Below, in pieces: positions 1 to 43,358 of a stretch of DNA of 64,000 bases. The stretch is from the NCBI RefSeq assembly GCF_056746865.1, contig NZ_CM163382.1, one strand, 5' to 3'. The notes under the pieces are model-generated. The model saw only the letters and a list, made by a program, of their open reading frames with translations. It ran no database searches and was not told the DNA's origin. A program made the position numbers and the translations under genes. Each line of letters starts with the position of its first letter. The stretch's first letter is position 1.

Positions 1-1581
1 ATTCAGGAAATCACGCAATATATCCTGAATAATTTCCGCCAGAAAACCCACCGTACTTTCCCTGGTTCCAAAGGTTTTAATGCCATGCTGGCAGTAAGCA
101 GCGTGGATGCTGCAAAAGCCTATTATGCGACGTTTAAACGGTTACAAGAGGAAGCCGCTAATAAATCTGTAACTTATAAACCGCTGCGTGTTGCGACAAT
201 CTTCTCCTTTGCCGCTAATGAAGAACAAAATGCCATTGGTGAAATTTCCGATGAAACTTTTGATACCAGCGCAATGGACAGCAGTGCTAAAGAGTTTCTT
301 GACGCTGCAATTCGTGAGTATAACAGCTATTTTAAAACTAACTTCAGCACCGACGGTAACGGTTTTCAGAACTACTATCGTGATTTAGCCCAACGGGTTA
401 AAAATCAGGATATCGATCTGTTAATTGTCGTGGGAATGTTTTTAACCGGCTTCGATGCTCCAACATTAAACACGCTATTCGTCGATAAAAACTTGCGTTT
501 TCACGGCCTGATGCAGGCATTCTCCCGCACCAACCGCATTTATGACGCGACTAAAACCTTCGGTAATATTGTCACGTTCCGGGATCTGGAACGCTCAACC
601 ATTGATGCCATAACGCTGTTTGGTGATAAAAATACCAAAAATGTGGTTTTAGAAAAGAGTTATGCAGAGTATATGGAAGGCTTTACTGATGCTGCCACTG
701 GTGAAGCTAAACGCGGCTTCATGACAGTAGTTTCAGAACTGGAACAACGGTTCCCTGACCCTACCAGTATTGAAAGTGAAAAAGAGAAGAAAGACTTCGT
801 TAAACTGTTTGGCGAATACCTGCGTGCCGAGAATATCCTGCAAAACTATGATGAATTTGCCACGCTAAAAGCCCTGCAACAAATCGATCTTAGCGATCCT
901 GTTGCGGTAGAAAAATTCAAAGCAGAACATTATGTGGATGATGAAAAGTTCGCTGAATTGCAAACAATTCGTCTCCCTGCTGATCGCAAGATTCAGGATT
1001 ATCGTTCTGCCTATAACGATATTCGCGACTGGCAGCGCCGTGAGAAAGAAGCTGAGAAAAAAGAGAAATCAACCACTGACTGGGATGACGTAGTTTTTGA
1101 GGTCGATTTGCTGAAGTCTCAGGAAATAAACCTGGATTATATCCTTGGACTGATTTTCGAACACAACAGACAAAATAAAGGCAAGGGCGAAATGATCGAA
1201 GAGGTCAAACGCTTAATTCGTTCAAGCCTGGGGAACCGTGCTAAAGAGGGCCTGGTGGTCGATTTTATTCAGCAAACGAACCTGGATGATTTACCGGACA
1301 AAGCCAGCATCATTGACGCATTCTTTACGTTTGCTCAACGCGAACAGCAACGTGAAGCAGAAGCCTTGATCAAAGAAGAAAATCTCAATGAAGAGGCGGC
1401 GAAACGCTATATTCGCACATCTTTAAAACGCGAATACGCCACCGAAAATGGCACGGAATTAAACGAGACACTGCCCAGACTCAGTCCTTTAAATCCGCAA
1501 TATAAAACGAAAAAACAGACTGTTTTTCAAAAAATTAGCGCATTTATTGAAAAATTTAAGGGGGTGGGTGGAAAGATTTAG
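1..1581 (+). CDS. hsdR: Type I restriction enzyme R subunit (HsdR), C-terminal ~526 codons; 5' end lies upstream of the window
   Basis: Reading frame is open from nt 1; helicase motif VI region [31 protein letters not shown]; stop TAG (1579-1581) forms part of the TTAG flank of the adjacent IS5. Confidence 0.8.
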
Positions 1582-1728
1582 GGAAGGTGCGAATAAGCAG
1601 GTCATTTCTTCCCAAGCTGACTCGCTGATTAAAATTTCGCGGATCTGGGCCGATTTTTTTCCCGCAAACACATCGAATCGGCCTGTTTAGGCTATTTTTT
1701 CCACCATTTCTGGCGTTATTTCCGGTTT

Positions 1729-4015
<2,287 letters not shown>

Positions 4016-4184
4016 TCAGGAACTTGTTCGCACCTTCCCTAAAAAAAGCAGATGATTTTCATTATTATCGCAGGATAATTGTGCGCATATTTTCCATGCG
4101 GATAAGAATACTTATTCATGGAAATAATAATTTCCAGGTCATCAAGTGAAATCTGTTAACGCAAAGAGTGTTCCACCCTGCCCC

Positions 4185-4682
4185 TCACACCATCTCAAGT
4201 TTTACCGCGTCATAACCACACTGAACCAAACATTCACCGCAACCATTACATATTGCAGCATCGATTACAGGCATTCCGCTTTCGTTGATTGAGCATGCCT
4301 GAAGTGGGCATAGATCGACACACTGTTTGCAACTGCGCACCGGATTAACACAATTTGCTTTAAAAACGGGACGCAATCCGGTGTCGAAACGAGCCTGCGG
4401 ACGTAATGCCTCAGTGGAACATGCAGCTATACATAAGCCGCAGCCGTCACAACTGGCAAATTCAATCACCAATTGCGGATAGCCATCTTCATGCCGGTTG
4501 AGAATGCCCATGGGACAGGCATTAATACACAAATCACACTGCGTGCACTGCACACGAAACTGCGCATCAGGTAACGCGCCGGGAGGTAAGGAGTGCACAG
4601 GTAATATCGGTGTTGTTACCGGGCGTGCCGCGCTGACAAAGGCCCGAAATAGCCCACGTCGGCTAACATACCGATGAGACAT
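4185..4682 (-). CDS. 4Fe-4S ferredoxin-type protein (NapF/YdhY-like, four Cys clusters); start uncertain (alternative ATG at 4715)
   Basis: Four CxxCxxCxxxCP motifs; N-terminal SRRGLFRAF; last gene of the DMSO-reductase-type operon. Confidence 0.6.
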   Translation of the reverse strand: MSHRYVSRRGLFRAFVSAARPVTTPILPVHSLPPGALPDAQFRVQCTQCDLCINACPMGILNRHEDGYPQLVIEFASCDGCGLCIAACSTEALRPQARFDTGLRPVFKANCVNPVRSCKQCVDLCPLQACSINESGMPVIDAAICNGCGECLVQCGYDAVKLEMV

Positions 4683-4711
4683 TAACTCCTGATAATAATT
4701 TTCTGACTTAC

Positions 4712-5308
4712 TCATCCAAGAAAGAGCCGTTTGGTTGGAGGATTTAGTGCCTGTTGCTGCTGATAATCCTGCAGAAACAGTGTCGCAATCTGCGCCAACT
4801 TCGCGTAAAACGCACTGACAGGGTTGCGCTGTAATAACTCCAGATAACGATATCCCCACGGCAGCAAATGCGTTTCCAGCAATTGATTCGCTGCGCGTTC
4901 TTTCCCCTCTGCCAGCAAGGCGCTACAGGCAAGCAGCATCAGGCCAAACTGATCTTCCGGTTCATTTATACAGGAATCAAACGTCATTCCCTGATCACGA
5001 AGGAACTTCCGGTACTCGGCAGTGCTGTCCCCCATCAACAGATTATCTTTTTCGAGATATACCGAACCCCAGGGTGGTGCTGGCATTTCACCCTGTCCTT
5101 CAAAAAGAACAGAAAATTGCCAGAGATGCTGCTCCTCATCCGGGATTGACCAGTCAGAGCATAATTCAGCCACCTGGCGGGGATCGCGCCAGGGGTATAT
5201 CTCATCCAATGTCGGCAGACAGTCAAACAGTGCCCGAACTTCAGGACGCGTGGGAGAATAGTAAAACAGGGCACCAAGAATACGCACCAGTACGGCTGGG
5301 GAAGGCAT
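4712..5308 (-). CDS. DmsD/TorD-family Tat-proofreading chaperone
   Basis: VRILGALFYY...PWGSVYL...EPEDQFGLMLL similar to E. coli DmsD; SD AGGAG upstream of the ATG at 5308. Confidence 0.65.
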   Translation of the reverse strand: MPSPAVLVRILGALFYYSPTRPEVRALFDCLPTLDEIYPWRDPRQVAELCSDWSIPDEEQHLWQFSVLFEGQGEMPAPPWGSVYLEKDNLLMGDSTAEYRKFLRDQGMTFDSCINEPEDQFGLMLLACSALLAEGKERAANQLLETHLLPWGYRYLELLQRNPVSAFYAKLAQIATLFLQDYQQQQALNPPTKRLFLG

Positions 5309-5362
5309 GATTAAACACTCCTGAAAGCAGAGGTGGCCGGGCAAACACCGGCCACTCACAGG

Positions 5363-6139
5363 TTACATAGGGATGGTCCAGAGGTTGTAGAAACCGATCC
5401 GACCAACCAGTTCAGCAGCAATAACCACCAGTGCAGTCATCGCCAGCACAGCTTGCCCACTTTTCATGCGTGCATAGAGCAGTGCCCCAATAACACCCAG
5501 CGCCAACAGAATGGCCTGAGCGGTAAACCAGGTGGACTGCGCAGCGGTAATAACGCCATCAGCACTCATTAGCGTGGAAATATAACCCGGACGCAAACAG
5601 AAACTCGCCAGAATCGCCAGTACACTTACCAGCAGCCCCAGACGACGAACGCCAAACAACGCCGCCAACATGCCGCCACCGATAAGTGCAGTTAGCACCA
5701 TCATCATGGTGGTGTAAGAGGTACTCCAGGTCGCTACCGTTGCCAACTGGTAAATACGCGGGATGGCAAAGATAAACACGACTCCAATCGCAGCGGCCAG
5801 CCATACCAGTACTTTACAAAGCATTGCACCACCGCGATTTAACAGCAAACCGAGAGATCCCAGTCCTCCGGCTGCGGCAAAACATGCCGAAAGCACGATT
5901 TCGTTACTCATAGGAGAACTGCCGACACGGAATAGCATATTCAGCGCTCGCAGCGGCTGCCCGACATGAATGGTGCCAAGCACAACACCCACACCAAACA
6001 AGCACATCACCGAAAAGAGACCAATCGCCATACGACGTGGCTCAATTAATCCCATGGCACCGCCAATCAGCAGCAGAATAAACGCCCCCACTGCGCTCTG
6101 GGTAAATACGGTGAAAAAGACCAGTGGTAACTCATGCAT
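5363..6139 (-). CDS. DMSO reductase-type membrane anchor subunit (DmsC/YnfH-like)
   Basis: Polytopic hydrophobic 258-aa protein immediately downstream of the Fe-S subunit; SD GGGAGG. Confidence 0.7.
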   Translation of the reverse strand: MHELPLVFFTVFTQSAVGAFILLLIGGAMGLIEPRRMAIGLFSVMCLFGVGVVLGTIHVGQPLRALNMLFRVGSSPMSNEIVLSACFAAAGGLGSLGLLLNRGGAMLCKVLVWLAAAIGVVFIFAIPRIYQLATVATWSTSYTTMMMVLTALIGGGMLAALFGVRRLGLLVSVLAILASFCLRPGYISTLMSADGVITAAQSTWFTAQAILLALGVIGALLYARMKSGQAVLAMTALVVIAAELVGRIGFYNLWTIPM

Positions 6140-6758
6140 GGCGCACCTCCCGAATGTTCATGATCGCCCCTTCTTTGTCGCCCGTAGGTCGCGCCAGCGG
6201 ATGCGGTTTAATTATCAGGTTAGGATGCGTAAACGAAGCGGCAGGTAACGGTGCGATTTCATTTTCACTGCCATATTTCGCCCGCAATTCGTCGATAGGA
6301 CCAAAATCCAAAGCTCGCTGTGGACAGGACTCAACACAAATAGGCGGGAGATTTTTCTCCAGTCGGTCAAGGCAACCATCACACTTACGCATCACTTTAG
6401 CTTGTGTATCAAACTGCGGTGCACCATAAGGGCAGCGCATTTCGCAGTAACGACAGCCCACACAAACACTGTCATCCACCAGCACCAGGCCATCTTCTTC
6501 GCGTTTGTGCATCGCGCCGGTTGGGCAACCTGCCACACAGGTCGGTTCATCGCAGTGATTGCAGGCAATCGACAAATAGTAAGTGAAGGTATTGTTGTGC
6601 CAGCTTTCACCTTCTTTCACCCAGCTACCGCCACCATATTCATACACGCGGCGCAGCTTCGGTCCGACATCCAAATCTTTATTATCCTTGCAGCTTACCT
6701 GGCAGGTTTTGCAGCCAGAGCAACGCGAGGAGTCAACGTAAAAACCATACTGTTTCAT
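6132..6758 (-). CDS. DMSO reductase-type iron-sulfur subunit (DmsB/YnfG-like)
   Basis: MKQYGFYVDSSRCSGCKTCQVSCKDNKDL... with four ferredoxin Cys motifs. Confidence 0.8.
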   Translation of the reverse strand: MKQYGFYVDSSRCSGCKTCQVSCKDNKDLDVGPKLRRVYEYGGGSWVKEGESWHNNTFTYYLSIACNHCDEPTCVAGCPTGAMHKREEDGLVLVDDSVCVGCRYCEMRCPYGAPQFDTQAKVMRKCDGCLDRLEKNLPPICVESCPQRALDFGPIDELRAKYGSENEIAPLPAASFTHPNLIIKPHPLARPTGDKEGAIMNIREVRHA

Positions 6759-6771
6759 TGCGGATCACTCC

Positions 6772-9207
6772 CTAAGCGCGTTTGATTTCAACCAGGTTGG
6801 TATGTTGCGGGTTCCCTTTCGCCAGCGGCGACGGCAGGTGGCTGGTCAATGTGTTAATACATCCACCCACGTCCACACCGTTGCTGTCCAGTCGGGTCCA
6901 CGCGCCTTGCGGCATTGCCACCACGCCCGGCAGGATGCGCTGTGTCACCTTGCAGGGGATCTCCACCACACCGCGATCGTTGAATACATGGACCATATCG
7001 CCTGATTTCAACTGACGCACGCTGGCGTCTATCGGGTTGATCCAGACTTCATCCGGTACCGCTTCATGCAGCATCAGCACACTGGCATATGTTGAGTGCG
7101 TGTGACCTTTGGTGTGAAAACCGCTCATCTGTAGCGGATACTTTGCTGTCAGACTCTTGTTCAGATGGGACTCTGTCACTATACAAAATTCAGGAACAGC
7201 CGGAATGCGATCTCCTTCCGGTAGTGTCCAGGCTTTAGCCAGTTCCGCCAGAGTGTGCGAGTAAATCTCAATCTTCCCGGAAGGTGTCGTCAGTGGACTG
7301 GCAACCGGATCATGGCGGAAATCAGCAAGGATAATACTGTCCTCATCACGAGTACCTTGCTGATCGATAACCCCCATATTCATTGCAACTTCCCATTCAG
7401 GCAGATATGATCGCTTCTCTTTAACTTGTCCGTAATGCTTCGCCATCCACTCTGCCTGAGTACGCCCCTCAGTAAAACGCTCTCTTACCCCAAGATGCCC
7501 CGCAATATCTGCACAGATATCATAGGTACTGCGTACTTCCCACATCGGTGTGATCGTTTTTTGCATTGCAATCATGTAATGGTGAGAACCGGCTGCATAG
7601 GAACTGTCCACCAGATCCTCGGCTTCTAAGTAGCTAGTTTCTGGAAGAAGGATATCGGCAAAGCGGGCACTGGCAGTCATATGATTATCAATAACCACGA
7701 TAGTTTCGCACAGGCTGTCATCTTCAAGTATTTTGCGTGTACGATTGATATTTCCATGTTGATTCAGAAGTGCATTCCCGGCCTGGTTGAAGAACAGTTT
7801 AATACCGGTTTTCAGTTTATCCGCGCCTTTAACCCCCATAGTGGTGGCTGTCATTTTTTCCGGACTTTGAATCGCATCTGTCCACAGATAGCAGGGGATT
7901 GACACCTTAACGGGATTTTCACCAATCGGCAGAGCAGGAACACCATAAGGTGTTCCGTATGTCCAGTTCCCATTGTTGGTTCCTGGCAATCCAAAATGAC
8001 CCGTCAGGGCAGGAAGTATCTGAACCGCTCTGGAAGTCTGTTCACCATTTGCATGACGCTGTGGCCCCCATCCCTGGGCAATGAAACAGGCCCGAGCTTC
8101 GGCCATTTCACGTGCCAACTGGCGAATACGAATAGCCGGGATGCCACAGATATCTGCCGCCCATTCAGGTGTTTTTTCGACGCCGTCATCACCGTTACCC
8201 AGAACATAGTCTTTATAACTGGCATTTGGTTTCGCCGTTTCCGGAAGGGTGCTACGATCATAACCGACACAATAAGTATTGACTCGTTCTTCGTCGATCA
8301 GATTTTCTTTTATCAACGTGTGTGCAATAGCTGCTACCAGTGCAGCATCGGTTGTAGGGCGAATTGGTAACCATTCAGCATGTTCTGTAACAACAGAGTC
8401 TGTATAGCGCGGATCGATGATAATCACCCGGGCGCCTGATATTTCCAGCGCACGGCGCAGTTCTTCAACTTGCCCACCACCGGACATCCGAGTCTCAGAT
8501 AAATTCAGACCAAAAAAAACCACAAGATCAGAATGCGCAATCTGGCTAAAATGACTGGCAAACTGTACTCCTGTAGCACCATACGTGTAAGATGTGGCGG
8601 TAAAGTTTTGAGCGTTTGAGTAATTATTGTAATACTGCAGAAAACCGCCATTCAGGTTCAATAACCTTTTCCATGCGGGTGTTCCTTGGTTATGATAATA
8701 CGCGCCAGATTGATAATTAAAATAGATTGCTTCATTTCCATATTTTTCAGAAACGCGCTTTAATTCAGCGGCAATAAAGGCTGTGGCCTCATCCCATGAA
8801 ATACGTTTAAATTTCCCTTCTCCGCGTTTACCAACACGTTTCATCGGATATTTAATCCGGTCAGGGCTATAAACACGCCAGCGGCTGGAACGACCACGTA
8901 GGCAAGGTCGAATCTGATGTTCACCAAAAACAGAGTCGTCCTTCGCGTCCTCGGCTTCAATACGAACAATGCGTCCGTCTTTTACGATAACTTTTAATGG
9001 ACAACGACTTCCGCAATTCACCAGGCAAGCACTATGCCTGACGGTTTCAGCATTTTCGTTGGTTTTACCGGTATCCGATGTTTCGGCCCTGACGGTTGTG
9101 GAAAAAGGCAAAGTGATGGCGTTGCTTAGTGCAACGGCAGCTCCCAATTTTGCAGTTGTAGTCACCGCATCACGTCGGGAGATTGTTGTATTTAACAACT
9201 CTTTCAT
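6772..9207 (-). CDS. Molybdopterin oxidoreductase catalytic subunit, DMSO reductase family (DmsA/YnfE-like), with Tat signal
   Basis: N-terminal SRRDAV twin-arginine motif; CLVNCGSRCPL Fe-S motif; TRMSGGG and GWGPQRHANGE segments as in DmsA. Confidence 0.8.
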   Translation of the reverse strand: MKELLNTTISRRDAVTTTAKLGAAVALSNAITLPFSTTVRAETSDTGKTNENAETVRHSACLVNCGSRCPLKVIVKDGRIVRIEAEDAKDDSVFGEHQIRPCLRGRSSRWRVYSPDRIKYPMKRVGKRGEGKFKRISWDEATAFIAAELKRVSEKYGNEAIYFNYQSGAYYHNQGTPAWKRLLNLNGGFLQYYNNYSNAQNFTATSYTYGATGVQFASHFSQIAHSDLVVFFGLNLSETRMSGGGQVEELRRALEISGARVIIIDPRYTDSVVTEHAEWLPIRPTTDAALVAAIAHTLIKENLIDEERVNTYCVGYDRSTLPETAKPNASYKDYVLGNGDDGVEKTPEWAADICGIPAIRIRQLAREMAEARACFIAQGWGPQRHANGEQTSRAVQILPALTGHFGLPGTNNGNWTYGTPYGVPALPIGENPVKVSIPCYLWTDAIQSPEKMTATTMGVKGADKLKTGIKLFFNQAGNALLNQHGNINRTRKILEDDSLCETIVVIDNHMTASARFADILLPETSYLEAEDLVDSSYAAGSHHYMIAMQKTITPMWEVRSTYDICADIAGHLGVRERFTEGRTQAEWMAKHYGQVKEKRSYLPEWEVAMNMGVIDQQGTRDEDSIILADFRHDPVASPLTTPSGKIEIYSHTLAELAKAWTLPEGDRIPAVPEFCIVTESHLNKSLTAKYPLQMSGFHTKGHTHSTYASVLMLHEAVPDEVWINPIDASVRQLKSGDMVHVFNDRGVVEIPCKVTQRILPGVVAMPQGAWTRLDSNGVDVGGCINTLTSHLPSPLAKGNPQHTNLVEIKRA

Positions 9208-9287
9208 TTTATTTTCTCACATTGTTTTCATAATTATTATTAATACGACATATGAGGTAATCATAAAGAATTAGTAATTCATCATGA

Positions 9288-9301
9288 TTGATTATGATCA
9301 A
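9288..9301. promoter_or_regulatory. Consensus FNR box (TTGAT-tatg-ATCAA) about 87 bp upstream of the dmsA-like start
   Basis: Perfect TTGATnnnnATCAA palindrome; a TATGAT -10-like hexamer lies ~32 bp downstream on the coding strand; a second near-consensus site GTGATcattATCAA at 9337-9350. Confidence 0.5.
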
Positions 9302-9560
9302 GTGAGATTTGGTGCTTAGCACAAATATAAATATTTGTGATCATTATCAAAATGTAAATGATAACGCATCTTTATTATCATTTGAGATTAAATATCACGC
9401 AGCGTTAATCTAAGGAAGGTGCGAATAAGCAGGTCATTTCTTCCCAAGTTGACTCGCTGATTAAAATTTCGCGGAGCTGGGCCGATTTTTTTCCCGCAAA
9501 CACATCGAATCAGCCTGTTTAGGCTATTTTTTCCACCATTTCTGGCGTTATTTCCGGTTT

Positions 9561-11847
<2,287 letters not shown>

Positions 11848-11870
11848 TCAGGAACTTGTTCGCACCTTCC

Positions 11871-12465
11871 CAAGAGAACGCAACAGCGCACTTGCTTTGC
11901 CACAGTTGAATTTTGTGCCGTAACGATGTGCAAGCATGTAAGCATAAGGAGTCAAGGTATAGCGTGTTACTTAGTTACTCGGATTAACAATCCCAACGTA
12001 CAGAGCGGCGGATTTAGAGAGTCAGCGCAGTCCCTGCTCCGGCAGTCAGTGGCAGGCGGCGTACTGAAGCAAACCATTATCGATACCGGCATCGGCGATA
12101 CCATCGGCATGCTGATGTCACACGGCAATATTTCTCCCTACATCATGGCGTGGTTGATAACCGTGCTGATCCGTCTGGCAACGGGTCAGGGCGTGGTCTC
12201 AGCCATGACGGCGGCGGGGATTATTAGCGCAGCAATCCTCGACCCGGCAACCGGTCAACTGGTGGGCGTCGACCCGGCGTTGCTGGTGCTGGCAACAGCG
12301 GCTGGCTCCAACACGCTGACCCATATCAACGATGCTTCGTTCTGGCTGTTCAAAGGCTACTTTGATCTGTCGGTGAAGGATACGCTGAAAACCTGGGGTC
12401 TGCTGGAGCTGGTAAACTCCGTGGTTGGCCTGATAATCGTGTTGATCATCAGCATGATTGCATAA
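11871..12465 (+). pseudogene. GntP-family permease, 3' fragment truncated by IS5 copy B
   Basis: C-terminal transmembrane sequence ...[34 protein letters not shown]...[27 protein letters not shown]...; the track ORF 11554-12465 reads through from the IS5 end. Confidence 0.6.
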
Positions 12466-12514
12466 CGTTGATACCGCTCTGGCGCACAGCGCCAGAGCGG
12501 TTTTCCATCCTGCC

Positions 12515-13210
12515 TCAACAATCCTCAATAATCAGATATACCGCCTTCACCGGACCATGCACCCCAACCACCTTGATAAGCTCAATATCCGCCGTCGAGC
12601 TGGGTCCACTGATGATATTAATGCACGATGGCATACGCTCACCGGCCTGTGCTTTCTGATGCAGTTTTTCTGCCAGCTGCGCCACGCGCGGCAGGATGGT
12701 GCTTTTACGCAGCACGAAAATAGAGGACTCCGGCAACAGGCTCAGGGAGCGCCCGCGCTCCGGTGCGGAAAACAGCACCACGCCGCCGGACTCGGTCAGG
12801 CCATATTCGGCATACACCACGCCGACTTTCGCCTGCTCGGCCTGGGTAATATTTTCGCTACCACGCGCCGGATCCCAGACCACGGCGTTGCATTCCTGCT
12901 GCAAGCGTTCGGTGATGCCCAGCTCCACCAGCCGGCTGTCGCCGCTCAGCACCACCGGCTGCTGACCCAATTCTTCGCACAGGCGCAGTGCCGCGTCTGC
13001 GGCCTGGTCCTCGCTGGTCAGTTCGCAGCGGGCCAGCATCACTTCGCTGGCAAACTGGATAAACGCAGAGCAGCGCTGCTCGGGGCTAAGCTCGGTCAGG
13101 CGCTCGTTGGCATAGTTGTTAACCGGTGCGGCATCCGCTTGCGGTTCGAAGCGCAGCGGGCGACCCAGCGCCTGGGCGATGGTGTTTAAAAACGCGGTAC
13201 GGTTATCCAT
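12515..13210 (-). CDS. lutC: Lactate utilization protein C (LutC/YkgG family)
   Basis: MDNRTAFLNTIAQALGRPLRFEPQ... matches remembered E. coli YkgG; SD AGGAG; start overlaps lutB stop. Confidence 0.8.
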   Translation of the reverse strand: MDNRTAFLNTIAQALGRPLRFEPQADAAPVNNYANERLTELSPEQRCSAFIQFASEVMLARCELTSEDQAADAALRLCEELGQQPVVLSGDSRLVELGITERLQQECNAVVWDPARGSENITQAEQAKVGVVYAEYGLTESGGVVLFSAPERGRSLSLLPESSIFVLRKSTILPRVAQLAEKLHQKAQAGERMPSCINIISGPSSTADIELIKVVGVHGPVKAVYLIIEDC

Positions 13211-14630
13211 TCTTTTTCTCCTGCGCCTGATGTTTCTTAAACCAGCTGCGGAAGCTCTCGCCGTCAGCATCAGGCAGATCGCGCGCCTCCATCCAGTCAC
13301 CAATCGCGCCAACCTTGAGCGGGGTTTTGCCGCCATTGATAAACCAGCTCGCCGCATGCGCGCCCGCCATCATCCCGACTTTCCACAGCCCCGGATGGCT
13401 ATTGGCATAGGCGAACATCTTGATCGCCCGTCGCTCGGCTTTCGGCGTAATGCCCTCCTCGGCCATCACCCGGCGATGACGCAGGATCAGTTTTGACAAC
13501 GGAATACGCACCGGGCAGACGCTGTCACAAGCCGTGCACAAAGAACAGGCGTACGGCAGGTCTTTAAAATCTTTATAGCCGCCGAGCAGCGGAGAAATCA
13601 CCGCGCCGATAGGGCCGGGATAGATAGAGCCATAGCCGTGCCCGCCGATGTGGCGGTACGCCGGACAGGTGTTCATACAGGCTCCGCAGCGGATGCAGCG
13701 CAGCACATCGCGAAACTCTGAGCCCAGCACCTGCGAGCGACCGTTATCGACAATCACCAGATGGAACTCTTCCGGTCCGTCAACGTTGTCCGCATCACGC
13801 GGGCCGGTCAGCCAGGTGTTGTAGCCCGTCAGACGTGCGCCCACGGCGCTGCGCGCCAGCATGGTAATCAGCACATCCACCTCGGCAAAGGTCGGCGCGA
13901 TACGCTCCATGCCCATCACCGCAATGTGCGTTTTCGGTAGCGTGGTGCACATGCGCGCGTTGCCTTCGTTGGTCACCAGACACACCGAGCCGGTTTCCGC
14001 CACGGCAAAGTTACAGCCAGTAATACCGATTTCGGCACTGAGGAAATCCTCGCGGATCTTCTGACGAATGAACAAGGTCATAGCTTCCGGGGTTTCCGGG
14101 CCGTCGTACCCCAGACGTTCGTTCAGCACGCGGCGGATCTGGTAGCGATCTTTATGAATCGCCGGAACCACGACGTGCGAAGGCGGATCCTGATCCAACT
14201 GCAGGATATATTCCCCGAGATCGGTTTCGATCACCTGGATTCCGGCATCCTGCAACACATGGTTGACGCCGATTTCTTCGGTCACCATCGACTTGGACTT
14301 CACCACCTTCTGCGCATTTTTACTCTGCGCGACCTGCAAAATGTAGCGAGTGGCATCTTCTTTGGTTTTGGCGAAATAGACGTGTCCGCCGTTTTCCGTC
14401 ACTTTCTCGGAGAGTTGGTACAGGTAAGCGTCGAGGTTGCTCAGAACGTGATCGCGGATCTGGCTGGCACGATCGCGCCATTCTTCCCAGTGGCCTAACT
14501 CATCGACCATTTTTTGCCGATTCGCGCCGATACGCTCCTGCGCATTAGCCACGGCTTTGCGCATAATCGGATCTTCTATCTGCTGACGAATACGCAGTTT
14601 AAATTCTACATCGCTGGTTTTTATCGACAT
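13203..14630 (-). CDS. lutB: Lactate utilization iron-sulfur protein B (LutB/YkgF family)
   Basis: MSIKTSDVEFKLRIRQQIEDPIMRKAVANAQERIGANRQ... and CxxCxxC motifs. Confidence 0.85.
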   Translation of the reverse strand: MSIKTSDVEFKLRIRQQIEDPIMRKAVANAQERIGANRQKMVDELGHWEEWRDRASQIRDHVLSNLDAYLYQLSEKVTENGGHVYFAKTKEDATRYILQVAQSKNAQKVVKSKSMVTEEIGVNHVLQDAGIQVIETDLGEYILQLDQDPPSHVVVPAIHKDRYQIRRVLNERLGYDGPETPEAMTLFIRQKIREDFLSAEIGITGCNFAVAETGSVCLVTNEGNARMCTTLPKTHIAVMGMERIAPTFAEVDVLITMLARSAVGARLTGYNTWLTGPRDADNVDGPEEFHLVIVDNGRSQVLGSEFRDVLRCIRCGACMNTCPAYRHIGGHGYGSIYPGPIGAVISPLLGGYKDFKDLPYACSLCTACDSVCPVRIPLSKLILRHRRVMAEEGITPKAERRAIKMFAYANSHPGLWKVGMMAGAHAASWFINGGKTPLKVGAIGDWMEARDLPDADGESFRSWFKKHQAQEKKNG

Positions 14631-14640
14631 CTCTTTCCCC

Positions 14641-15360
14641 TCAGCGGCTCATCAGCACTTCAGCAATATGCATCACTTTGACCGGCTGGCCTTCCCGTTG
14701 CAGTCGACCGCCAATGTTCAGCAGGCAGCTAACGTCTGCGCCAATCAAAAATTCCGGCTTTGCGTCCATCAGATGTAATACTTTCTCTTTCACCATCTCA
14801 CCGGATATCTCGGCCATCTTGACCGAGAACGTCCCGCCAAAGCCGCAACAGGTATCCTGATCGGCAAACGTCAACAGCTCCAGTCCGCGCACGTTTTTCA
14901 GCAGCGTAAGCGGCTCTTCCTTCACTCCCAGTTTGCGGGTCAGGCTACAGGAAGGATGATACACAGCGCGGCCCTGCAGGCTGGCACCAACGTCCACCAC
15001 ACCCAGTTTGTTGACGATAAAGGAGGTGAGATCCTGCATACGCGCGGAAACTTTCTCAGCACGCAGCGCCCATTCCGGTTCATCGGCCAGATACGTCGGG
15101 TAGCTTTTAACCGCGTAGGTGCAGGAGCCCGCCGGGGAGATAATCGGATCGTCGTTGTCTTCCAGCGCGGCGATCAGGTTTTTCATCCCGGGGATCGCCT
15201 CTTTGATGTAACCGCTGTTGATGGCTGGCTGACCGCAACACCCTTGCTTCTCGGGGAAATTAACGCGACAACCCAGTTTTTCCAGCAGCAATACGGAGTC
15301 TCGTGCCATCCGTGATTTCAGTGCGTCACCAATACAGGTGACAAAGAAATTTACATTCAC
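14641..15360 (-). CDS. lutA: Lactate utilization protein A (LutA/YkgE family, Cys-rich)
   Basis: MNVNFFVTCIGDALKSRMARDSV... with CCG motifs. Confidence 0.85.
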   Translation of the reverse strand: MNVNFFVTCIGDALKSRMARDSVLLLEKLGCRVNFPEKQGCCGQPAINSGYIKEAIPGMKNLIAALEDNDDPIISPAGSCTYAVKSYPTYLADEPEWALRAEKVSARMQDLTSFIVNKLGVVDVGASLQGRAVYHPSCSLTRKLGVKEEPLTLLKNVRGLELLTFADQDTCCGFGGTFSVKMAEISGEMVKEKVLHLMDAKPEFLIGADVSCLLNIGGRLQREGQPVKVMHIAEVLMSR

Positions 15361-15434
15361 AATAACTACTCCATTGCTTCATTTCTGTTTATTGCGCTTG
15401 ATATCGCGATATCAAACAAATGTTCATTCGTATT

Positions 15435-17132
15435 TCATGCCCAGTTTTTATGTTTGCTGGTTTTACCAATACCTGGATTCATAGTGTTGGTCGGATCATT
15501 TTCCTGATAAAAACGTGCCAAATTTTCCGGCGCTTTATACAGATGGCCGACATTGTGTTCCGCCGGATATTGCGCTCCGCGTTGGCGCAGTAATTCCAGC
15601 ATCTGTTCTTTTAACGCGTGGGCATCTACGCCTTTTTTAACGATATAATCCTGATGGAATACATGGCACATAAAATGGCCGTAATAGAGTTTATGCACCA
15701 ACTGACTGTCAATTTCCGCAGGTAAATACTCATACCATTCGGTATCATTGCGGCGTAATGCAATATCCAGCGCGAGAATATCCTCAACCTCGTCAGAATG
15801 AACGGCCTGATAACGAATGGCAGCACCCGCGGCGGCAAAACGATGCAGAAACGCCTTACTGCCCTCTTCCGCGGTACAGGTAAAGAACGCGCCCTCGGCC
15901 GATTTAAAATAGTCCGTTAACCATGCCTGGGCTTCGGCCACACCCTCGCCGGACATTTTCAACATCAGATGGTGTTCATAGTTATCGCGCCAGGTCTTCA
16001 TCCGCGCCGGGAGATGGCTCGGGAACAGATGGCTAAAAGCCTGCATCGCGCGGTCAGTAAAGTGCGGGCGAAAGATCTTCACCTTCTCAAGTATGGCCTC
16101 GGTACGCCCCTTCAGGTTGAAGAAGAACGGCATTTTGTCCGTGCCAAGTTTGTCGATCATCAGGAAGGTATCTTTGCTGTATTTCTCTGCAATATCATAG
16201 ATATCGCGGTGCATATACTCCCCAGCAACCGGCAGGTTTGTAAAATTCGCCAGGATGTGGCGGCGAATCTCAGTCAGGACATCAGTCTGATTGGTACCGA
16301 TATAAAAGACCTGCTGGTTCTTCTCGGCTTCAAAGGTATCCAGACGTACGGCAAACACCGCTAACTTGCCCGCGCAGCCAGAGGATTCAAACAGGCGATC
16401 CGGGTCAGCGTTGTAACGTGCTGGCGTGTCGGCATTGATGTCCCGCACGCGGCTAACATAGTCGTGATCGTGCGCGTGACGTCCGTCATGGTTGACGAGC
16501 GCGGCTTCAATCACATTGTTATCCAGCCGGGCAAGGATTTGCTCTGGCGTCTGACCTAGCTCAATGCCAAGGTGATTGACCAGCTGCAAGCGTCCCTGTT
16601 CATCAATGCGGGCAAACAGCGACATCTCGGTGTAAGCCGGGCCTCGCTGGACCAGAGAACCGCCCGAGTTATTACAGATACCGCCGATAACCGACGCGCC
16701 GATGCACGAAGAGCCGATCACCGAATGCGGCTCACGGCCAAACGGCTTCAGCGCCCTTTCCAGCGAGTACAGCGTGGTGCCCGGATAAGCCAGCACCTGC
16801 TTGCCCTCATCCAGCACATGCAGACTGTCCAGCCGCAGCGTGCTGATAATGACGATCTCGCGGTCGTAGTCATTACCATTTGGCGTCGAACCCTCGGCCA
16901 GGCCTGTGTTCGACGCCTGCATCAGGATTATTTTATCAGCCTCAACGCAGGCGCTGAGGACTTTCCAGAGTTCAAGCAAAGAGCCGGGGATAACCACCGC
17001 CAGAGCATCACCCTGACCCGAGCGGAATCCCTTACGGTAACGCGCAGTTTTTGACGGTTCGGTGAGGATATGAGCAGGGCCAACCAATTGGGTAAGAGTC
17101 GTCAAAAAGGTCTTATTATCAGTATGTTTCAT
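15435..17132 (-). CDS. dld: FAD-dependent D-lactate dehydrogenase (Dld paralog)
   Basis: High similarity along the whole length to remembered E. coli Dld (ARYRKGFRSGQGDALAVV...NPGIGKTSK). Confidence 0.8.
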   Translation of the reverse strand: MKHTDNKTFLTTLTQLVGPAHILTEPSKTARYRKGFRSGQGDALAVVIPGSLLELWKVLSACVEADKIILMQASNTGLAEGSTPNGNDYDREIVIISTLRLDSLHVLDEGKQVLAYPGTTLYSLERALKPFGREPHSVIGSSCIGASVIGGICNNSGGSLVQRGPAYTEMSLFARIDEQGRLQLVNHLGIELGQTPEQILARLDNNVIEAALVNHDGRHAHDHDYVSRVRDINADTPARYNADPDRLFESSGCAGKLAVFAVRLDTFEAEKNQQVFYIGTNQTDVLTEIRRHILANFTNLPVAGEYMHRDIYDIAEKYSKDTFLMIDKLGTDKMPFFFNLKGRTEAILEKVKIFRPHFTDRAMQAFSHLFPSHLPARMKTWRDNYEHHLMLKMSGEGVAEAQAWLTDYFKSAEGAFFTCTAEEGSKAFLHRFAAAGAAIRYQAVHSDEVEDILALDIALRRNDTEWYEYLPAEIDSQLVHKLYYGHFMCHVFHQDYIVKKGVDAHALKEQMLELLRQRGAQYPAEHNVGHLYKAPENLARFYQENDPTNTMNPGIGKTSKHKNWA

Positions 17133-17563
17133 GGAGGGCGGCTCTCCGCTCCTTATATCAGGGCCAGTGAAAATGGCTATAAGTTCATTTGTATGACAAA
17201 GCAGAATATTCCCTCAATCAATATCCACATGCAATACCCCATTTTATTTCTTTCGGTACCGCTCACATTTTTTAATGAAATTACCACCGCCATATAATTC
17301 ATACCTCGCCCTTTGAGGGGATGCCAAAACACTTATTTATTGCAAAGATCATCCCATACCTATTAATGATTAACTCTAATGGGTGTTGTAATATTTAGTG
17401 GTTATTCATATTTAATAAAAAAAATAACATTATTTATACAATTATTAACCTTTATAACTTTATTTCACTGAAGCGATTCAGTTAGCATTTTTTATTTTAT
17501 TATTCAGGTAGCTTCCTTCCCCATAAATATAGCTCAGTCTAAAAAAGTAAATCGGGAATTGTA

Positions 17564-19117
17564 ATGCACGAATATTTAATGTTTGCTCTGGCACTCTCTC
17601 CTTTGCTGCTGATGGTATTTTTAATACTGAAATTAAAAATGCCCATCCATTATTCCGTACTGATCTCTTTGGTATTCACCGCTGCACTATCGGCAATATT
17701 CTGGGAAATGCCCGTACAAAATTTGAAAGCCGCGATAGGCTATGGTGCACTGAAGGGACTATGGCCGATCGTAATTGTTATCCTCGGCGCTATCTTCAGT
17801 TATAACGTCATGCAGGCGACCAAAGCGCTGGATATTCTGCGCGATATTCTCGCCAGCATTAGCGAAGATAAGCGTATTCAGGTGCTGCTGATTTCATGGT
17901 GTTTTGGTGGATTTCTTGAAGCCGCTGCGGGCTATGGCACGGCGGTCGCTATTCCGATCGGTATTCTCATTGCGCTGGGATTCAACCCGTTGAAGGCGGC
18001 GATTGCTTCCCTCGTAGCAAATACCGTTCCGACCGCATTTGGCGCGGTTGGGATCCCGGTTTCTATTCTGGCAGAGCAGGTTAATCTGCCGGTTTATACC
18101 TTAGGCGGAACCATTATTTTGCAGCTCGCGCTGTTTAATATCCTGCTGCCGTTTGTGATTGTCTGCATTATTGGCGGTGGCCTGAAAGCCATTCGCGGCG
18201 TATTTCTGATCACGTTGATTTGCGGCATTTCCACGCTGATTCCGCAATATTTTGTCGCCATCCATCTTGGCGCGGAATTACCCGCTTTTGCCGGTAGCCT
18301 GGTCAGCCTGTTTGCCGTGGCGATGGTCAGTCGCCTGCGCAAAGGGAAAACCGATCCAGAGTGGCGCATTGAGGTCAGCCATACCCGCGAAACCACGCCG
18401 CGCTCGGCAAAAGTGTTGTTCCGCGTGGGCTCTATCTATCTGTTTATTTTTGTGTTTATCCTGCTGTGTTCGCCGCTGTTTCCGACAATAAAAGGCGCGG
18501 CATCCCAACTGGCTTCGGTGCTGCATTTCACGTTGGCTGACGGCAAAACGATGGCACTGAAAGTTGAATGGGTGACCACACCAGGGATGCTGATTATCTT
18601 TGCGACCATTATCGGCGGTTTTATTCAGGGAGCGTCCGCACGCGGGATGCTGGAAGTATTTATCAAAACGATTTTCCAGCTTAAAAACTCTATCGTGGCA
18701 ATTATGGCGATCGTCGCGCTGGCCACGGTGATGGATCTCAGCGGGATTATCTCCACACTGGCGCAGTCGATTGTCGATCTGACCGGCAGCTCGTACGTCT
18801 TCCTCGCCCCGGTGATTGGCGCGCTGGGCACGTTCGTTACCGGCAGCGATACCAACTCGAACATTCTGTTTGGCAAGCTGCAAACCATAGCTGCCAGCAA
18901 GTTACATATCGATCCCAACTGGCTGGCGGCGGCCAATACCTCTGGCGCTACGGGGGGCAAAATGATTTCGCCGCAAAGCATCGCCATCGCGGTTTCTGCC
19001 ACCAAAATGGACGGTCAGGCCAATCAGATCATGTCTGGCACCATGAAATACTGCTGTGCCTACATTGTGATCCTTGGCCTGAAAGTCGGTCTCTTTTATT
19101 ACTGGTTTATGGCGTAA
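17564..19117 (+). CDS. Lactate permease (LctP/LldP/GlcA family)
   Basis: 517-aa polytopic protein; conserved GSDTNSNILFGKLQ and GKMISPQSIAIA segments of LctP-family transporters. Confidence 0.8.
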   Translation: MHEYLMFALALSPLLLMVFLILKLKMPIHYSVLISLVFTAALSAIFWEMPVQNLKAAIGYGALKGLWPIVIVILGAIFSYNVMQATKALDILRDILASISEDKRIQVLLISWCFGGFLEAAAGYGTAVAIPIGILIALGFNPLKAAIASLVANTVPTAFGAVGIPVSILAEQVNLPVYTLGGTIILQLALFNILLPFVIVCIIGGGLKAIRGVFLITLICGISTLIPQYFVAIHLGAELPAFAGSLVSLFAVAMVSRLRKGKTDPEWRIEVSHTRETTPRSAKVLFRVGSIYLFIFVFILLCSPLFPTIKGAASQLASVLHFTLADGKTMALKVEWVTTPGMLIIFATIIGGFIQGASARGMLEVFIKTIFQLKNSIVAIMAIVALATVMDLSGIISTLAQSIVDLTGSSYVFLAPVIGALGTFVTGSDTNSNILFGKLQTIAASKLHIDPNWLAAANTSGATGGKMISPQSIAIAVSATKMDGQANQIMSGTMKYCCAYIVILGLKVGLFYYWFMA

Positions 19118-20115: not shown

Positions 20116-21639
20116 TTAAATGCTGGCGAACGCCATTGCCACTTCTGTAAAGCGCGATGTATACGTGTTTCTGGTCTCCGTCCTCAGATAGGGATTACCT
20201 TCGGGTAGCCGCCAGCGGAACAGCTTCTTGCCTTGCCCCACCAACCGGTACAGTATTTCGCCGCTGAGCTTGCCGTGATTGGTTTTACCAAATAAAACCC
20301 ACGTTTTGCTCTGACCCGGTTTCGGTGATTTACACCACCACCTCATCAGGGAAGCGATACCTGTACGGTATTTGCGGGCCAGCCAGTGAGCCAGCTTCCA
20401 GAACACGACACGGTCGATATAACTGAAGACTTTGGCCTTAAAATCAACGAACTGATAGAACATGGCCCAGCCTTTCAGTTTTCGGTTGAGTTGTTCAGCC
20501 ATATCGACTTTGCTTTCACTGTAGTTGCCTGATAACAGTGCTGTCAGCGATGCGGCGAAGTTTCTGGCTTTCTCCTGCGGGATCGTTGAGACCACTCGCA
20601 TCTCGCCATAACGACTGCGTTTGCGAATGATCCTGTGCCCCAGAAAGATAAAGCCGTCATTAACATGGGTGATTTTAGTCTTATCCATGTTCAGCCTGAG
20701 TTTCAGACTGCCTTCGAGCACACCCCGACACTCCTCCCTGATGGCTTCCGCCTGTGCTTTGGTGCCTTTGACGATGAGGACAAAATCATCGGCATAGCGG
20801 CAGTACGCCACCGCGGGTTTCCACTGCCAGTTTTCTCTGACCGCCGTACTTCGGCCCCGTTGGATACTGTTATTCCAGTACCACCGATCTTTTCTGGCTT
20901 TCCCGCTCAGGTAGCGCTCATGCAGGTATTGATCGAACTCATTCAGCATGATGTTCGATAATAGCGGCGATATAACACCGCCCTGTGGCACACCTTCACT
21001 GGCCGCCCGAAAGAGACCGACATCGATATGTCCCGCCTTGATGGTTTTCCACAGCAGAGTCATGAAACGTGCGTCACTGATCCTGCGGCGTACAGCCTTC
21101 ATCAGCAGTCGATGATGTACGGTGTCGAAGTAACTGGACAGGTCGCCTTCAATCACCCAGCGTCCCCGGGTTTCACCACAGTCTGTGAGCTGTAATTTCA
21201 CCGTGCGGATCGCGTGGTGGACACTGCTCTCAGGCCGGAAGCCATATGAGAGCGTATGAAAATCACTCTCCCATATCGGCTCCATCGCCATCAGCATGGC
21301 CCGCTGAACAATACGATCCCGCAACGCGGGGATACCCAGTGGTCGCAGTTTGCCGTTGCTTTTAGGGATGTAAACCCGTCTGGCGGGCAAGGGCTGGTAG
21401 TGGCCTGAGAGTAATTCATCCCTGAGGATTTGCAGCTCAACAGCCAGTCTGGCCTGTAGCATTGTTTTGTTCACGCCATCAACGCCGGGGGTATGGGCCC
21501 CCTTTGATGAAAGCGTGATCCGCGCCGCTTCAGCCAGCCATTCTGGTTGTGTTATCAGACGCAGCAGCCGTTGAATCCGTAGGGACGGATCGGTGGCTGC
21601 CCATGTGGCAAGCTTGCGTTGCATTTCGCTGATTATCAA
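20116..21639 (-). CDS. Group II intron-encoded protein (reverse transcriptase with maturase domain); TTG start
   Basis: RT motifs including the YADD box (AVAYCRYADDFVLIV) and GKLRPLGIPALRDRIVQ; located in intron domain IV. Confidence 0.85.
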   Translation of the reverse strand: MIISEMQRKLATWAATDPSLRIQRLLRLITQPEWLAEAARITLSSKGAHTPGVDGVNKTMLQARLAVELQILRDELLSGHYQPLPARRVYIPKSNGKLRPLGIPALRDRIVQRAMLMAMEPIWESDFHTLSYGFRPESSVHHAIRTVKLQLTDCGETRGRWVIEGDLSSYFDTVHHRLLMKAVRRRISDARFMTLLWKTIKAGHIDVGLFRAASEGVPQGGVISPLLSNIMLNEFDQYLHERYLSGKARKDRWYWNNSIQRGRSTAVRENWQWKPAVAYCRYADDFVLIVKGTKAQAEAIREECRGVLEGSLKLRLNMDKTKITHVNDGFIFLGHRIIRKRSRYGEMRVVSTIPQEKARNFAASLTALLSGNYSESKVDMAEQLNRKLKGWAMFYQFVDFKAKVFSYIDRVVFWKLAHWLARKYRTGIASLMRWWCKSPKPGQSKTWVLFGKTNHGKLSGEILYRLVGQGKKLFRWRLPEGNPYLRTETRNTYTSRFTEVAMAFASI

Positions 21640-33822: not shown

Positions 33823-34156
33823 ATTTTCTCCTGCGGATAACTGAACAGCCCTGTCCCTGATGCGGGTGATCCGGGCAACAAACCTGACAGAGACGCCTGC
33901 ATAAGTGGTCGCGCTGTACCAGTATGAGCCTCCATCATCCTGATTTGTGTATTAACTTTCAATACCGGAGGACGATTTGATTACCGGTTGTTAGCAGGAG
34001 TGCGAATATTAGACCGACGGTGGAGATCTAAGACTCAGTGAGCATAGCGATACACTATATTACTGTAATTAAGCCAGTAAACTTCCTGTTCACTGGCTTA
34101 AACGCTAATGATGTATGCAGTTGAACAAGCTTTTAAACTAATGATTAATTGATATA

Positions 34157-42041: not shown

Positions 42042-43358
42042 TCACCTTCTGCCAAACAGATTGACAACATTATTGCCTGTTTGCTGTTGATAGTTATTAA
42101 CCCGGTCCTCCCAGATCTCAAGTGCTCTGCGTTTTTCTGGCAAATAATCGTATCGATCATAATGTTTTGAACTGACATCGTTCAACGCATGATTTTGAAT
42201 ACGATCGCGGATTTCCTTACTGATCCCAGCTTCTCCCATTAACGTTTTACAGGTCCGACGTAAGTCACGTGCTGTAAAAATTTTAAAGTCAGGATTAAAA
42301 GCCCGGAAATACATGATAGCGCGAGCCAGACTGTCCGTACGAACCGGACGCTTACCATTAGTCGAAAGTGGAAAAATGTAAGGGCTGGATTTTTCTTTTG
42401 TTAACTCCTGCACACAGGATAATTCCTGTAATGCTGATTCAGTCAACGGTATCAAATGCTCTCGTTTATTTTTAGAGACATCAGCAGTCACCAGCAGCGT
42501 TTTTTGTTGAAAATCAACATCACACCACTGACTGGCGATCATTTCGAAAGGACGTTGCCCTCCGGTATAGATACAGAATCGGATCAAATGTTGCATCAAT
42601 AATCCAACGTTGGTTGCTTCAGCAAAATGTTCCATTAGAAAACGCAACTCTTCAAGTGTCAGCCAGGTATCACCGACTTTTTCAGCAGATGACTGTTTCG
42701 GTATCACTGACACCGGATTTGCCTCCAGCCCAAAAGTAATCCCTACACTTGTGTTCATCGGATCGTTATCTGCTTTCAGTCCATAGTTAAATGCAGCCAT
42801 CAGGTAAGAACGGATCCGGTTAGAGTGAACCACAGCACCGCGCTGAATGATCCCGGCCAGGATATGTTTAATCTGTCCGGAAGTCACATCTTTAGCTTTA
42901 GTTTCACGGGGGATCACTGTATAGCATTCATTTTCAAGGCGTTTCAGAACATCCTGCCATGTCCTCTTATTATCAATTTTCATTTTGTTAACATAACCAT
43001 GAATCAATGCTTCAAATGAGCCCTGTGATTGATGGAGTTGTATCCGCTGCTGTTCTGCAAACTGTTGTCGTTCCAGTTCTGCCTGGGGATCCTTTCCTTC
43101 AATGAGCCAGGCACCATACTTTTTTGTCAGTTCATTCGCTGTGGCCAGTTTCATCTCAGGCCATATACCCAATTGAATGAATCTTTCTTTTTTCCCTTTT
43201 TCCACGTAATAGCGGAAATAGAAAATCTTGCTGCCAGAAGGCTGAACTTTGACACCAAGTCGTCCAGTGCCACGTTGAGAGCTGTTGCTCCAGACATAGA
43301 ACGATGTCTTTTTTGCTTTCAATGCTCGGATGGCTGTTTCAGTAAGATTGACGGCCAT
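42042..43358 (-). CDS. int: P4-type tyrosine integrase
   Basis: 438-aa protein with N-terminal arm-binding domain (KIFYFRYY...) and C-terminal tyrosine-recombinase domain; adjacent to the tRNA-derived attachment core. Confidence 0.85.
   Translation of the reverse strand: MAVNLTETAIRALKAKKTSFYVWSNSSQRGTGRLGVKVQPSGSKIFYFRYYVEKGKKERFIQLGIWPEMKLATANELTKKYGAWLIEGKDPQAELERQQFAEQQRIQLHQSQGSFEALIHGYVNKMKIDNKRTWQDVLKRLENECYTVIPRETKAKDVTSGQIKHILAGIIQRGAVVHSNRIRSYLMAAFNYGLKADNDPMNTSVGITFGLEANPVSVIPKQSSAEKVGDTWLTLEELRFLMEHFAEATNVGLLMQHLIRFCIYTGGQRPFEMIASQWCDVDFQQKTLLVTADVSKNKREHLIPLTESALQELSCVQELTKEKSSPYIFPLSTNGKRPVRTDSLARAIMYFRAFNPDFKIFTARDLRRTCKTLMGEAGISKEIRDRIQNHALNDVSSKHYDRYDYLPEKRRALEIWEDRVNNYQQQTGNNVVNLFGRR

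Follow-up and report, generated by a model that had tools for sequence, protein, structure and literature searches.

The native 3' end of an EcoR124-family hsdR gene as the probable end point of an ISKpn26-associated deletion in a chromosomal island

An hsdR gene at the start of the window, by which we mean the whole 64,000-nucleotide stretch of DNA that was analyzed, ends exactly where a copy of the insertion sequence ISKpn26 begins. The C-terminal half of this hsdR, a chromosomal gene of the EcoR124 family (type IC), is undamaged, its coding sequence is unaltered by the IS, and it ends at a native stop codon (TAG, 1579-1581). From a comparison with related genomes, we infer that an IS-associated deletion of 3.8 kb ended at this junction, and we propose below how, and in what order, the rearrangements may have taken place. 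We assign a probability of about 0.9 to the overall explanation, which combines an intact hsdR and its native stop with an IS-associated deletion and the later capture of a module.

Direct reading of the junction shows at 1578-1581 the tetranucleotide TTAG, which fits the YTAR target of the IS5 family and consists of the last base of an Ile codon plus the hsdR stop TAG (1579-1581); the inverted repeat of the element begins at 1582. The first-pass annotation had described the hsdR TAG as part of a TTAG flanking IS5; the positions of the TTAG and of the repeat stand, but the element is not IS5. The 16-bp terminal inverted repeat GGAAGGTGCGAATAAG, which starts at 1582, occurs as a pattern at four sites in the window versus 0 expected from shuffled sequence. 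These terminal inverted repeats (GGAAGGTGCGAAYAAG) lie at 1582-1597, 4023-4038, 9414-9429, and 11855-11870, the second of each pair on the minus strand. The first pair bounds copy 1 (1582-4038, minus strand), with IRR at 1582-1597 and IRL at 4023-4038. Copy 1 has a total length of 2457 bp, which becomes 1196 bp when a second element, ISEc31, and its duplication are subtracted. ISKpn26 is an IS5-family element of 1196 bp that makes 4-bp direct duplications (PMC8023600).

The identity of copy 1 was established from its inverted repeats, its similarity to annotated elements, Pfam matches, and PGAP naming in relatives. It is identical to the annotated intact ISKpn26 of strain W2-5 at 1190 of 1196 positions (99.5%), and to the mostly IS5-type hybrid element of strain NT1N25 at 1108 of 1194. 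Its transposase gene is present as two fragments on the minus strand (1729-2514 and 3758-3970), and Pfam detected DDE_Tnp_1 (E=5.5e-36) and DUF772 in the 261-aa fragment. Inside this gene lies ISEc31, an IS3-family element of 1258 bp (2516-3773, minus strand), which was recognized by comparison with intact ISKpn26, by Pfam (HTH_Tnp_1 on the 115-aa orfA and rve on the 348-aa orfB), and by PGAP naming in strains W2-5 and PK-F-10132. It is bordered by a 3-bp duplication, ATG, at 2513-2515 and 3774-3776. Because ISEc31 splits the ISKpn26 transposase gene, copy 1 is unable to make an intact transposase. The transposase genes of the IS point toward hsdR and are convergent with it. A second copy of ISKpn26::ISEc31 (9414-11870, minus strand, 2457 bp) has the same orientation and length as copy 1 and differs from it by 7 mismatches.

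By these comparisons, the element is ISKpn26 interrupted by ISEc31 and not IS5 proper, to which ISKpn26 is only ∼93% identical and from which it is clearly distinct in the 80 bp proximal to IRR. The window copies resemble ISKpn26 in their 16-bp inverted repeats, 1196-bp length, DDE_Tnp_1 transposase, and YTAR-type flanks (TTAG and CTAA); they differ from it in that ISEc31 has inactivated both of them and in that a 4-bp direct duplication is found at neither. On comparison with annotated records, the names IS5 and IS600 gave way to ISKpn26 and ISEc31 for the two elements.

ISEc31 occupies the identical site in each of the two ISKpn26 copies, with an identical ATG duplication. The tract corresponding to 2081-3929 is the same in both, and the flanking single-nucleotide positions 1617, 1644, 1680, 1795, 1950, 2080, and 3930 differ between them. 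In W2-5, ISEc31 is found in the second ISKpn26 copy only. The twin ISEc31 suggests either gene conversion, by which one ISKpn26 copy would have received ISEc31 from the other, or an assembly artefact. The latter could be the case because no complete genome in the collection has the exact structure of the window, with ISEc31 in both copies together with the module between them. A 63-codon open reading frame (1556-1747, minus strand) runs from the ISKpn26 end over the junction into the final 26 bases of hsdR; PGAP labels it "hypothetical protein" in many genomes (e.g. WP_306417990.1), and it is probably an annotation artefact made by the junction.

An IS end that abuts a stop codon is in itself unremarkable, since YTAR, the target of the IS5 family, amounts to TAA or TAG with a pyrimidine before it, and ISKpn26 adjoins the hsdR stop because the preferred target of the family is here T plus TAG. 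The window has 448 YTAR sites overall, and Y+TAR forms the end of 11 of its 51 long reading frames. A YTAR-type target is thus present at the junction, and the expected 4-bp duplication is absent. The flanks are TTAG and CTAA for copy 1 and CTAA and CAAG for copy 2, with no 4-bp direct duplication at either. Since the flanks of copy 1, TTAG and CTAA, do not repeat each other directly, the junction did not arise as a simple insertion, and the missing duplication is attributable to later rearrangement. An earlier reading of this junction, a native stop next to an IS inserted at a YTAR site, is correct as to the stop and the site, but the simple insertion that it implies is not borne out. An inversion between the IS copies within the window was considered and rejected, since the native downstream flank of hsdR (TAGTAACAAAAGG...) has no match elsewhere in the window at up to 3 mismatches. 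A scan of the native 160 bp after hsdR found no intrinsic terminator, and terminator-like matches close to the window junction are at the level expected by chance, so the loss of a regulatory element has no evidence in its favor.

Related genomes provide a comparative series for this junction. In strain 2452, hsdR is followed by a 160-bp native tail, IS1, IS remnants, a porin, and then TTAG-ISKpn26-CAAG, the truncated gntP', lutCBA, and dld. In strain 165, the order is hsdR-TTAG-ISKpn26-CAAG-gntP'-lutCBA-dld. In the window, it is hsdR, ISKpn26::ISEc31, module, ISKpn26::ISEc31, and gntP'. Relative to strain 2452, exactly 3813 bp are missing from strain 165, a segment that begins with the first base past the hsdR stop and reaches to the IRR end of the element, and the new left flank after this loss is a YTAR site. 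Strain 2452, strain 165, and the window have the same sequence over the 600 bp right of the IS. In the window, this side holds the 3' remnant of a GntP-family permease gene (11871-12465, plus strand; match to positions 309-440 of 440 in GntP_permease only), which is cut by the IRL end of ISKpn26 with the flank CAAG. This conservation marks 11871-12465 as the right-hand flank that the resident ISKpn26 originally had. The ISKpn26 of strain 2452 is itself without a duplication (TTAG versus CAAG), so its "ancestral" state was already rearranged.

Based on this series, we propose the following route to the junction. The ancestral state would have been like that of strain 2452, with ISKpn26 located 3.8 kb downstream of hsdR and its other end in a truncated gntP. 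The IRR end of ISKpn26 would then have been fused with the TTAG that contains the hsdR stop, with loss of the intervening 3813 bp, giving the arrangement of strain 165. This could have happened in one step, by intramolecular transposition ("adjacent deletion"), or in two, by a new insertion at the TTAG and subsequent recombination between two direct copies; these deletion routes give an identical product and are indistinguishable. On grounds of parsimony, we infer that the direction of the change was a 3.8-kb deletion and not an insertion. Adjacent deletions and composite transposons have been described for IS1, IS5, IS26, and similar elements. The present junction is like an IS adjacent deletion in that the IS retains one of its flanks and has a new target sequence in place of the other, with no duplication; it differs in that its mechanism is drawn entirely from comparative genomics.

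A tenable, if tentative, alternative is that ISKpn26 transposed simply into the TTAG with a 4-bp duplication and that its right flank was swapped later by recombination, with no adjacent deletion. ISKpn26 normally makes 4-bp duplications (PMC8023600), as in the case of a CTAT duplication on a plasmid described below, its copies clearly recombine in this island, and the end product would be indistinguishable from that of an adjacent deletion. The right junction that such an insertion would have created, represented by a synthetic query of IRL, TTAG, and the native flank TAGTAAC..., was found in 0 of 5426 complete Escherichia coli genomes, though the occupied left junction is present in 212 of them (∼4%) and the empty site in 177. 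The two-step route to the deletion would likewise have passed through an intermediate with this right junction.

The sequence of hsdR next to the junction bears on how many times the junction arose. Positions 1187-1581 (plus strand), the last 395 bp of hsdR, form a junction-linked haplotype that is defined by difference positions: they are identical to the occupied-junction genomes W2-5 and 165 and differ from empty-site alleles at 1239, 1242, 1296, 1308, and 1317. When the window hsdR is compared with the W2-5 and 165 alleles, 47-49 differences are found, all at or before 1186 (∼3-4% diverged). This switch of alleles at ∼1186 indicates that the window hsdR is a mosaic produced by homologous exchange upstream. 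In NT1N25, the element at the junction (L001 9582-10779) is annotated as IS5, and its sequence is of the ISKpn26 type for the first ∼80 bp and of the K-12 IS5A type afterwards. Together, the junction-linked haplotype and the NT1N25 chimera argue for a single ancestral event, after which recombination took place, and against a hot spot that was hit repeatedly.

The converse proposal, that the TTAG at the hsdR stop is a hot spot which was hit independently by ISKpn26 in some lineages and by IS5 in NT1N25, is in our assessment very unlikely. Occupied junctions do occur with two hsdR alleles that are ∼3% apart, and an element annotated as IS5 does lie at the same base in NT1N25. However, the differences between the allele groups all lie more than 395 bp from the junction, the proximal 395-bp haplotype is shared and distinct from the empty-site alleles, and the NT1N25 element is a recombinant rather than an independent insertion of IS5.

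The stop codon itself is native. In genomes with an empty site (2017.04.03CC and 2452), the 3' end of hsdR reads ...AAG ATT TAG TAG TAA CAAAAGG, with the identical TAG in use. Seven E. coli hsdR alleles that were compared, whether IS-bearing or IS-free, encode the same final 11 residues, and in IS-free genomes the final 181 bp of hsdR and the TAG are identical to those of the window. The native 3' end of hsdR has three successive in-frame stops, TAG TAG TAA (in the empty-site genomes, L002 9579-9587 and L007 9541-9549), and the IS junction eliminates the second and third of these.

The coding sequence in the window is also complete to its native end. In frame 1 of the plus strand, hsdR is open from base 1 to the TAG at 1579-1581, with 526 codons and 0 internal stops. 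PDB and Pfam matches identify 1-1581 as the 3' half of hsdR, comprising codons 513-1038 and the native TAG. In a phmmer search of PDB, the entire fragment (residues 1-526) aligned with 2w00_A at residues 513-1038 of 1038 (1127 bits). Compared with the 1038-aa HsdR of EcoR124I, there are 11 substitutions in 526 residues (97.9% identity, 515/526), and the C terminus, ...KGVGGKI, is identical. Pfam placed T1R_D3-like at residues 24-195 of the fragment and EcoR124_C at residues 216-519, the latter spanning profile positions 1-260 of 260 (E=1e-72), which indicates a complete C-terminal helical domain. The NCBIfam hsdR subfamily model also matches the visible part, with a score below the cut-off solely because half of the protein lies outside the window.

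In the domain map of EcoR124I HsdR, residues 1-249 form the nuclease, 250-464 and 473-728 the RecA-like domains, and 729-1038 the C-terminal domain (PMC2878639). The window therefore holds most of RecA-like (helicase) domain 2 and the entire C-terminal helical domain; residues 1-512, with the PD-(D/E)xK nuclease domain and RecA-like domain 1, are encoded upstream of the window. The C-terminal domain of HsdR functions in translocation, cleavage, and ATPase activity and probably also mediates assembly with the methylase (PMC5248579), and the EcoR124-type C-terminal helical domain has been implicated in methylase assembly (PMC5248579, PMC2878639). Truncation of the HsdR C terminus would have been consequential, and none is present. 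That the IS truncated or rewrote the C terminus, with the TAG supplied or exposed by the insertion, is effectively ruled out: the one point in its favor is that the stop coincides with the 4-bp IS flank, and against it stand the alignment to the final residue of EcoR124I HsdR, the full coverage of the EcoR124_C profile, and the IS-free genomes with the same last 181 bp and the same TAG. The first-pass annotation had raised such a truncation and had proposed an alignment with intact homologs as the check; the match to the last residue refutes it.

Close matches to the 1581-bp part of hsdR are present in 1301 of the 5426 complete E. coli genomes. The nearest relative, NT1N25, has 2 differences in 1581 bp, and its hsdR is annotated as intact, with 3117 bp or 1038 codons. 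Close relatives in general carry an annotated hsdR of 3117 bp (1038 aa) with intact hsdM and hsdS before it. The restriction enzyme of the window may still be functional.

Type IC systems are organized in the gene order hsdM-hsdS-hsdR. This order, with all genes annotated as intact, is found in every related locus inspected. Type IC has EcoR124 as its prototype, and families of restriction-modification systems are defined by subunit complementation and antibody cross-reactivity among their members (PMC3874165). The visible part of the window copy shares 515 of 526 residues with the HsdR of EcoR124I/EcoR124II (PDB 2W00, 4BE7, 5J3N), and relatives of the window locus share the hsdM-hsdS-hsdR order with these systems. 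On this evidence, the assignment to type IC (EcoR124 family) is correct, and the type IC-like arrangement suggested earlier from the sequence is upheld by the 97.9% identity and by the gene order in close relatives. The window copy differs from EcoR124 in that it is chromosomal, in an integrase-bearing island, whereas that of EcoR124 is on plasmid R124, and in that its specificity subunit lies outside the window, with HsdS lengths that vary among its relatives. As had already been pointed out, hsdM and hsdS are both absent from the window; they lie outside it, together with the N-terminal half of hsdR.

Between the two ISKpn26 copies is a 5.4-kb passenger module (4039-9413, minus strand) with CTAA at both ends. 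Pfam matches identify it as an operon of the DMSO/selenate-reductase family that encodes, all on the minus strand, an A subunit (6772-9207), a B subunit (6132-6758), an anchor subunit (5363-6139), a DmsD-like chaperone (4712-5308), and a 4Fe-4S protein (4185-4682). Matches to this module were found in 75 E. coli genomes, with at least 99% identity in 36 of them (100% in the 12 listed), and plasmids account for 49 of the 75 places. It is also present in 72 PLSDB plasmids, from Escherichia (64), Salmonella (4), and Citrobacter (4). Nearly identical copies thus reside on plasmids of both E. coli and Salmonella as well as on chromosomes, and a variant of the module that is ∼90% identical is plasmid-borne as well. 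A literature search found no paper that mentions both ISKpn26 and "DMSO reductase."

Plasmid pEF7-18-51_1 carries an ISKpn26-module-ISKpn26 unit with a perfect duplication of CTAT on its two sides, which indicates that this unit is a composite transposon that can transpose as a whole. In the window, the outer flanks of the unit (TTAG and CAAG) do not match, so the composite did not arrive there by transposition. Instead, the ISKpn26 fused to hsdR may have served as a homology patch, with which an ISKpn26-bounded reductase composite, or a circle derived from such a composite, would have recombined to give the structure of the window. The module and the second ISKpn26 copy were thus probably acquired by homologous recombination with the resident ISKpn26. 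The window unit is like known IS-bounded composites in having a passenger between two direct IS copies and, on the plasmid, a proper CTAT duplication; it differs from a composite transposon in that it apparently entered by homologous recombination with the resident copy and not by transposition.

Other relatives carry different sequence to the right of the IS. In W2-5, the left part is as in the window, and the right junction consists of IRL followed by CTAA-GACTCAG, which corresponds to the window from 34028 onwards. The sequence CTAA-GACTCAGTGAGC... (window 34028-34057) forms the right ISKpn26 junction in both W2-5 and PK-F-10132. Compared with the window, these two strains lack ∼22 kb (11871-34027), which appears to be another ISKpn26-associated deletion that ends at a YTAR site (CTAA), and in PK-F-10132 the module has been lost. 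In NT1N25, the right flank differs again and contains a frameshifted second hsdM. Across these genomes, the left junction is stable and the right side has been exchanged repeatedly.

The segment to the right of copy 2 belongs to an island. Positions 11871-19117 contain the truncated GntP-family permease, a second lutABC/ykgEFG-like lactate-utilization cluster, dld, and a lactate permease, and this segment is an accessory lactate-utilization block inside the island. Copies of the block that are at least 99% identical occur in only 68 records, and copies that are 80-90% identical occur in almost all E. coli. Farther along, an open reading frame for a group II intron reverse transcriptase/maturase (20116-21639, minus strand, 507 aa; TIGR04416, E=1.7e-100) appears intact; the annotation of strain 165 gives its counterpart an internal stop. 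The island ends with a 438-aa tyrosine integrase (42042-43358, minus strand), after which come the core genes aer, patA, ebgR, and ebgA (to 53593). The window has no tRNA genes, which means that the island is not integrated at a tRNA visible here.

All of the components of this locus are of well-known kinds, and the junction is a common scar in sequenced E. coli. An effect of the junction on hsdR expression, for example through convergent IS transcription, is speculative. Extremely doubtful is the broader proposition that the scar is not neutral, in that convergent IS transcription or the lost 3' flank would lower HsdR and weaken restriction, the fused IS would act as a landing pad for recombination, and the two together would have favored plasmid-borne cargo such as the DMSO-reductase module. 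If true, it would explain the persistence of the junction in ∼4% of complete E. coli genomes.

For annotation, these results mean that this hsdR should be treated as intact at its 3' end and not as a pseudogene, and that the adjoining element should be named ISKpn26::ISEc31 and not IS5. For the locus, they depict a single IS copy that repeatedly reshuffles its island neighborhood, by what appear to be a deletion of 3.8 kb, the uptake of a 5.4-kb module for a respiratory reductase that plasmids also carry, a deletion of ∼22 kb in related strains, and the formation of IS5/ISKpn26 chimeras, while the adjacent defense gene is left untouched.
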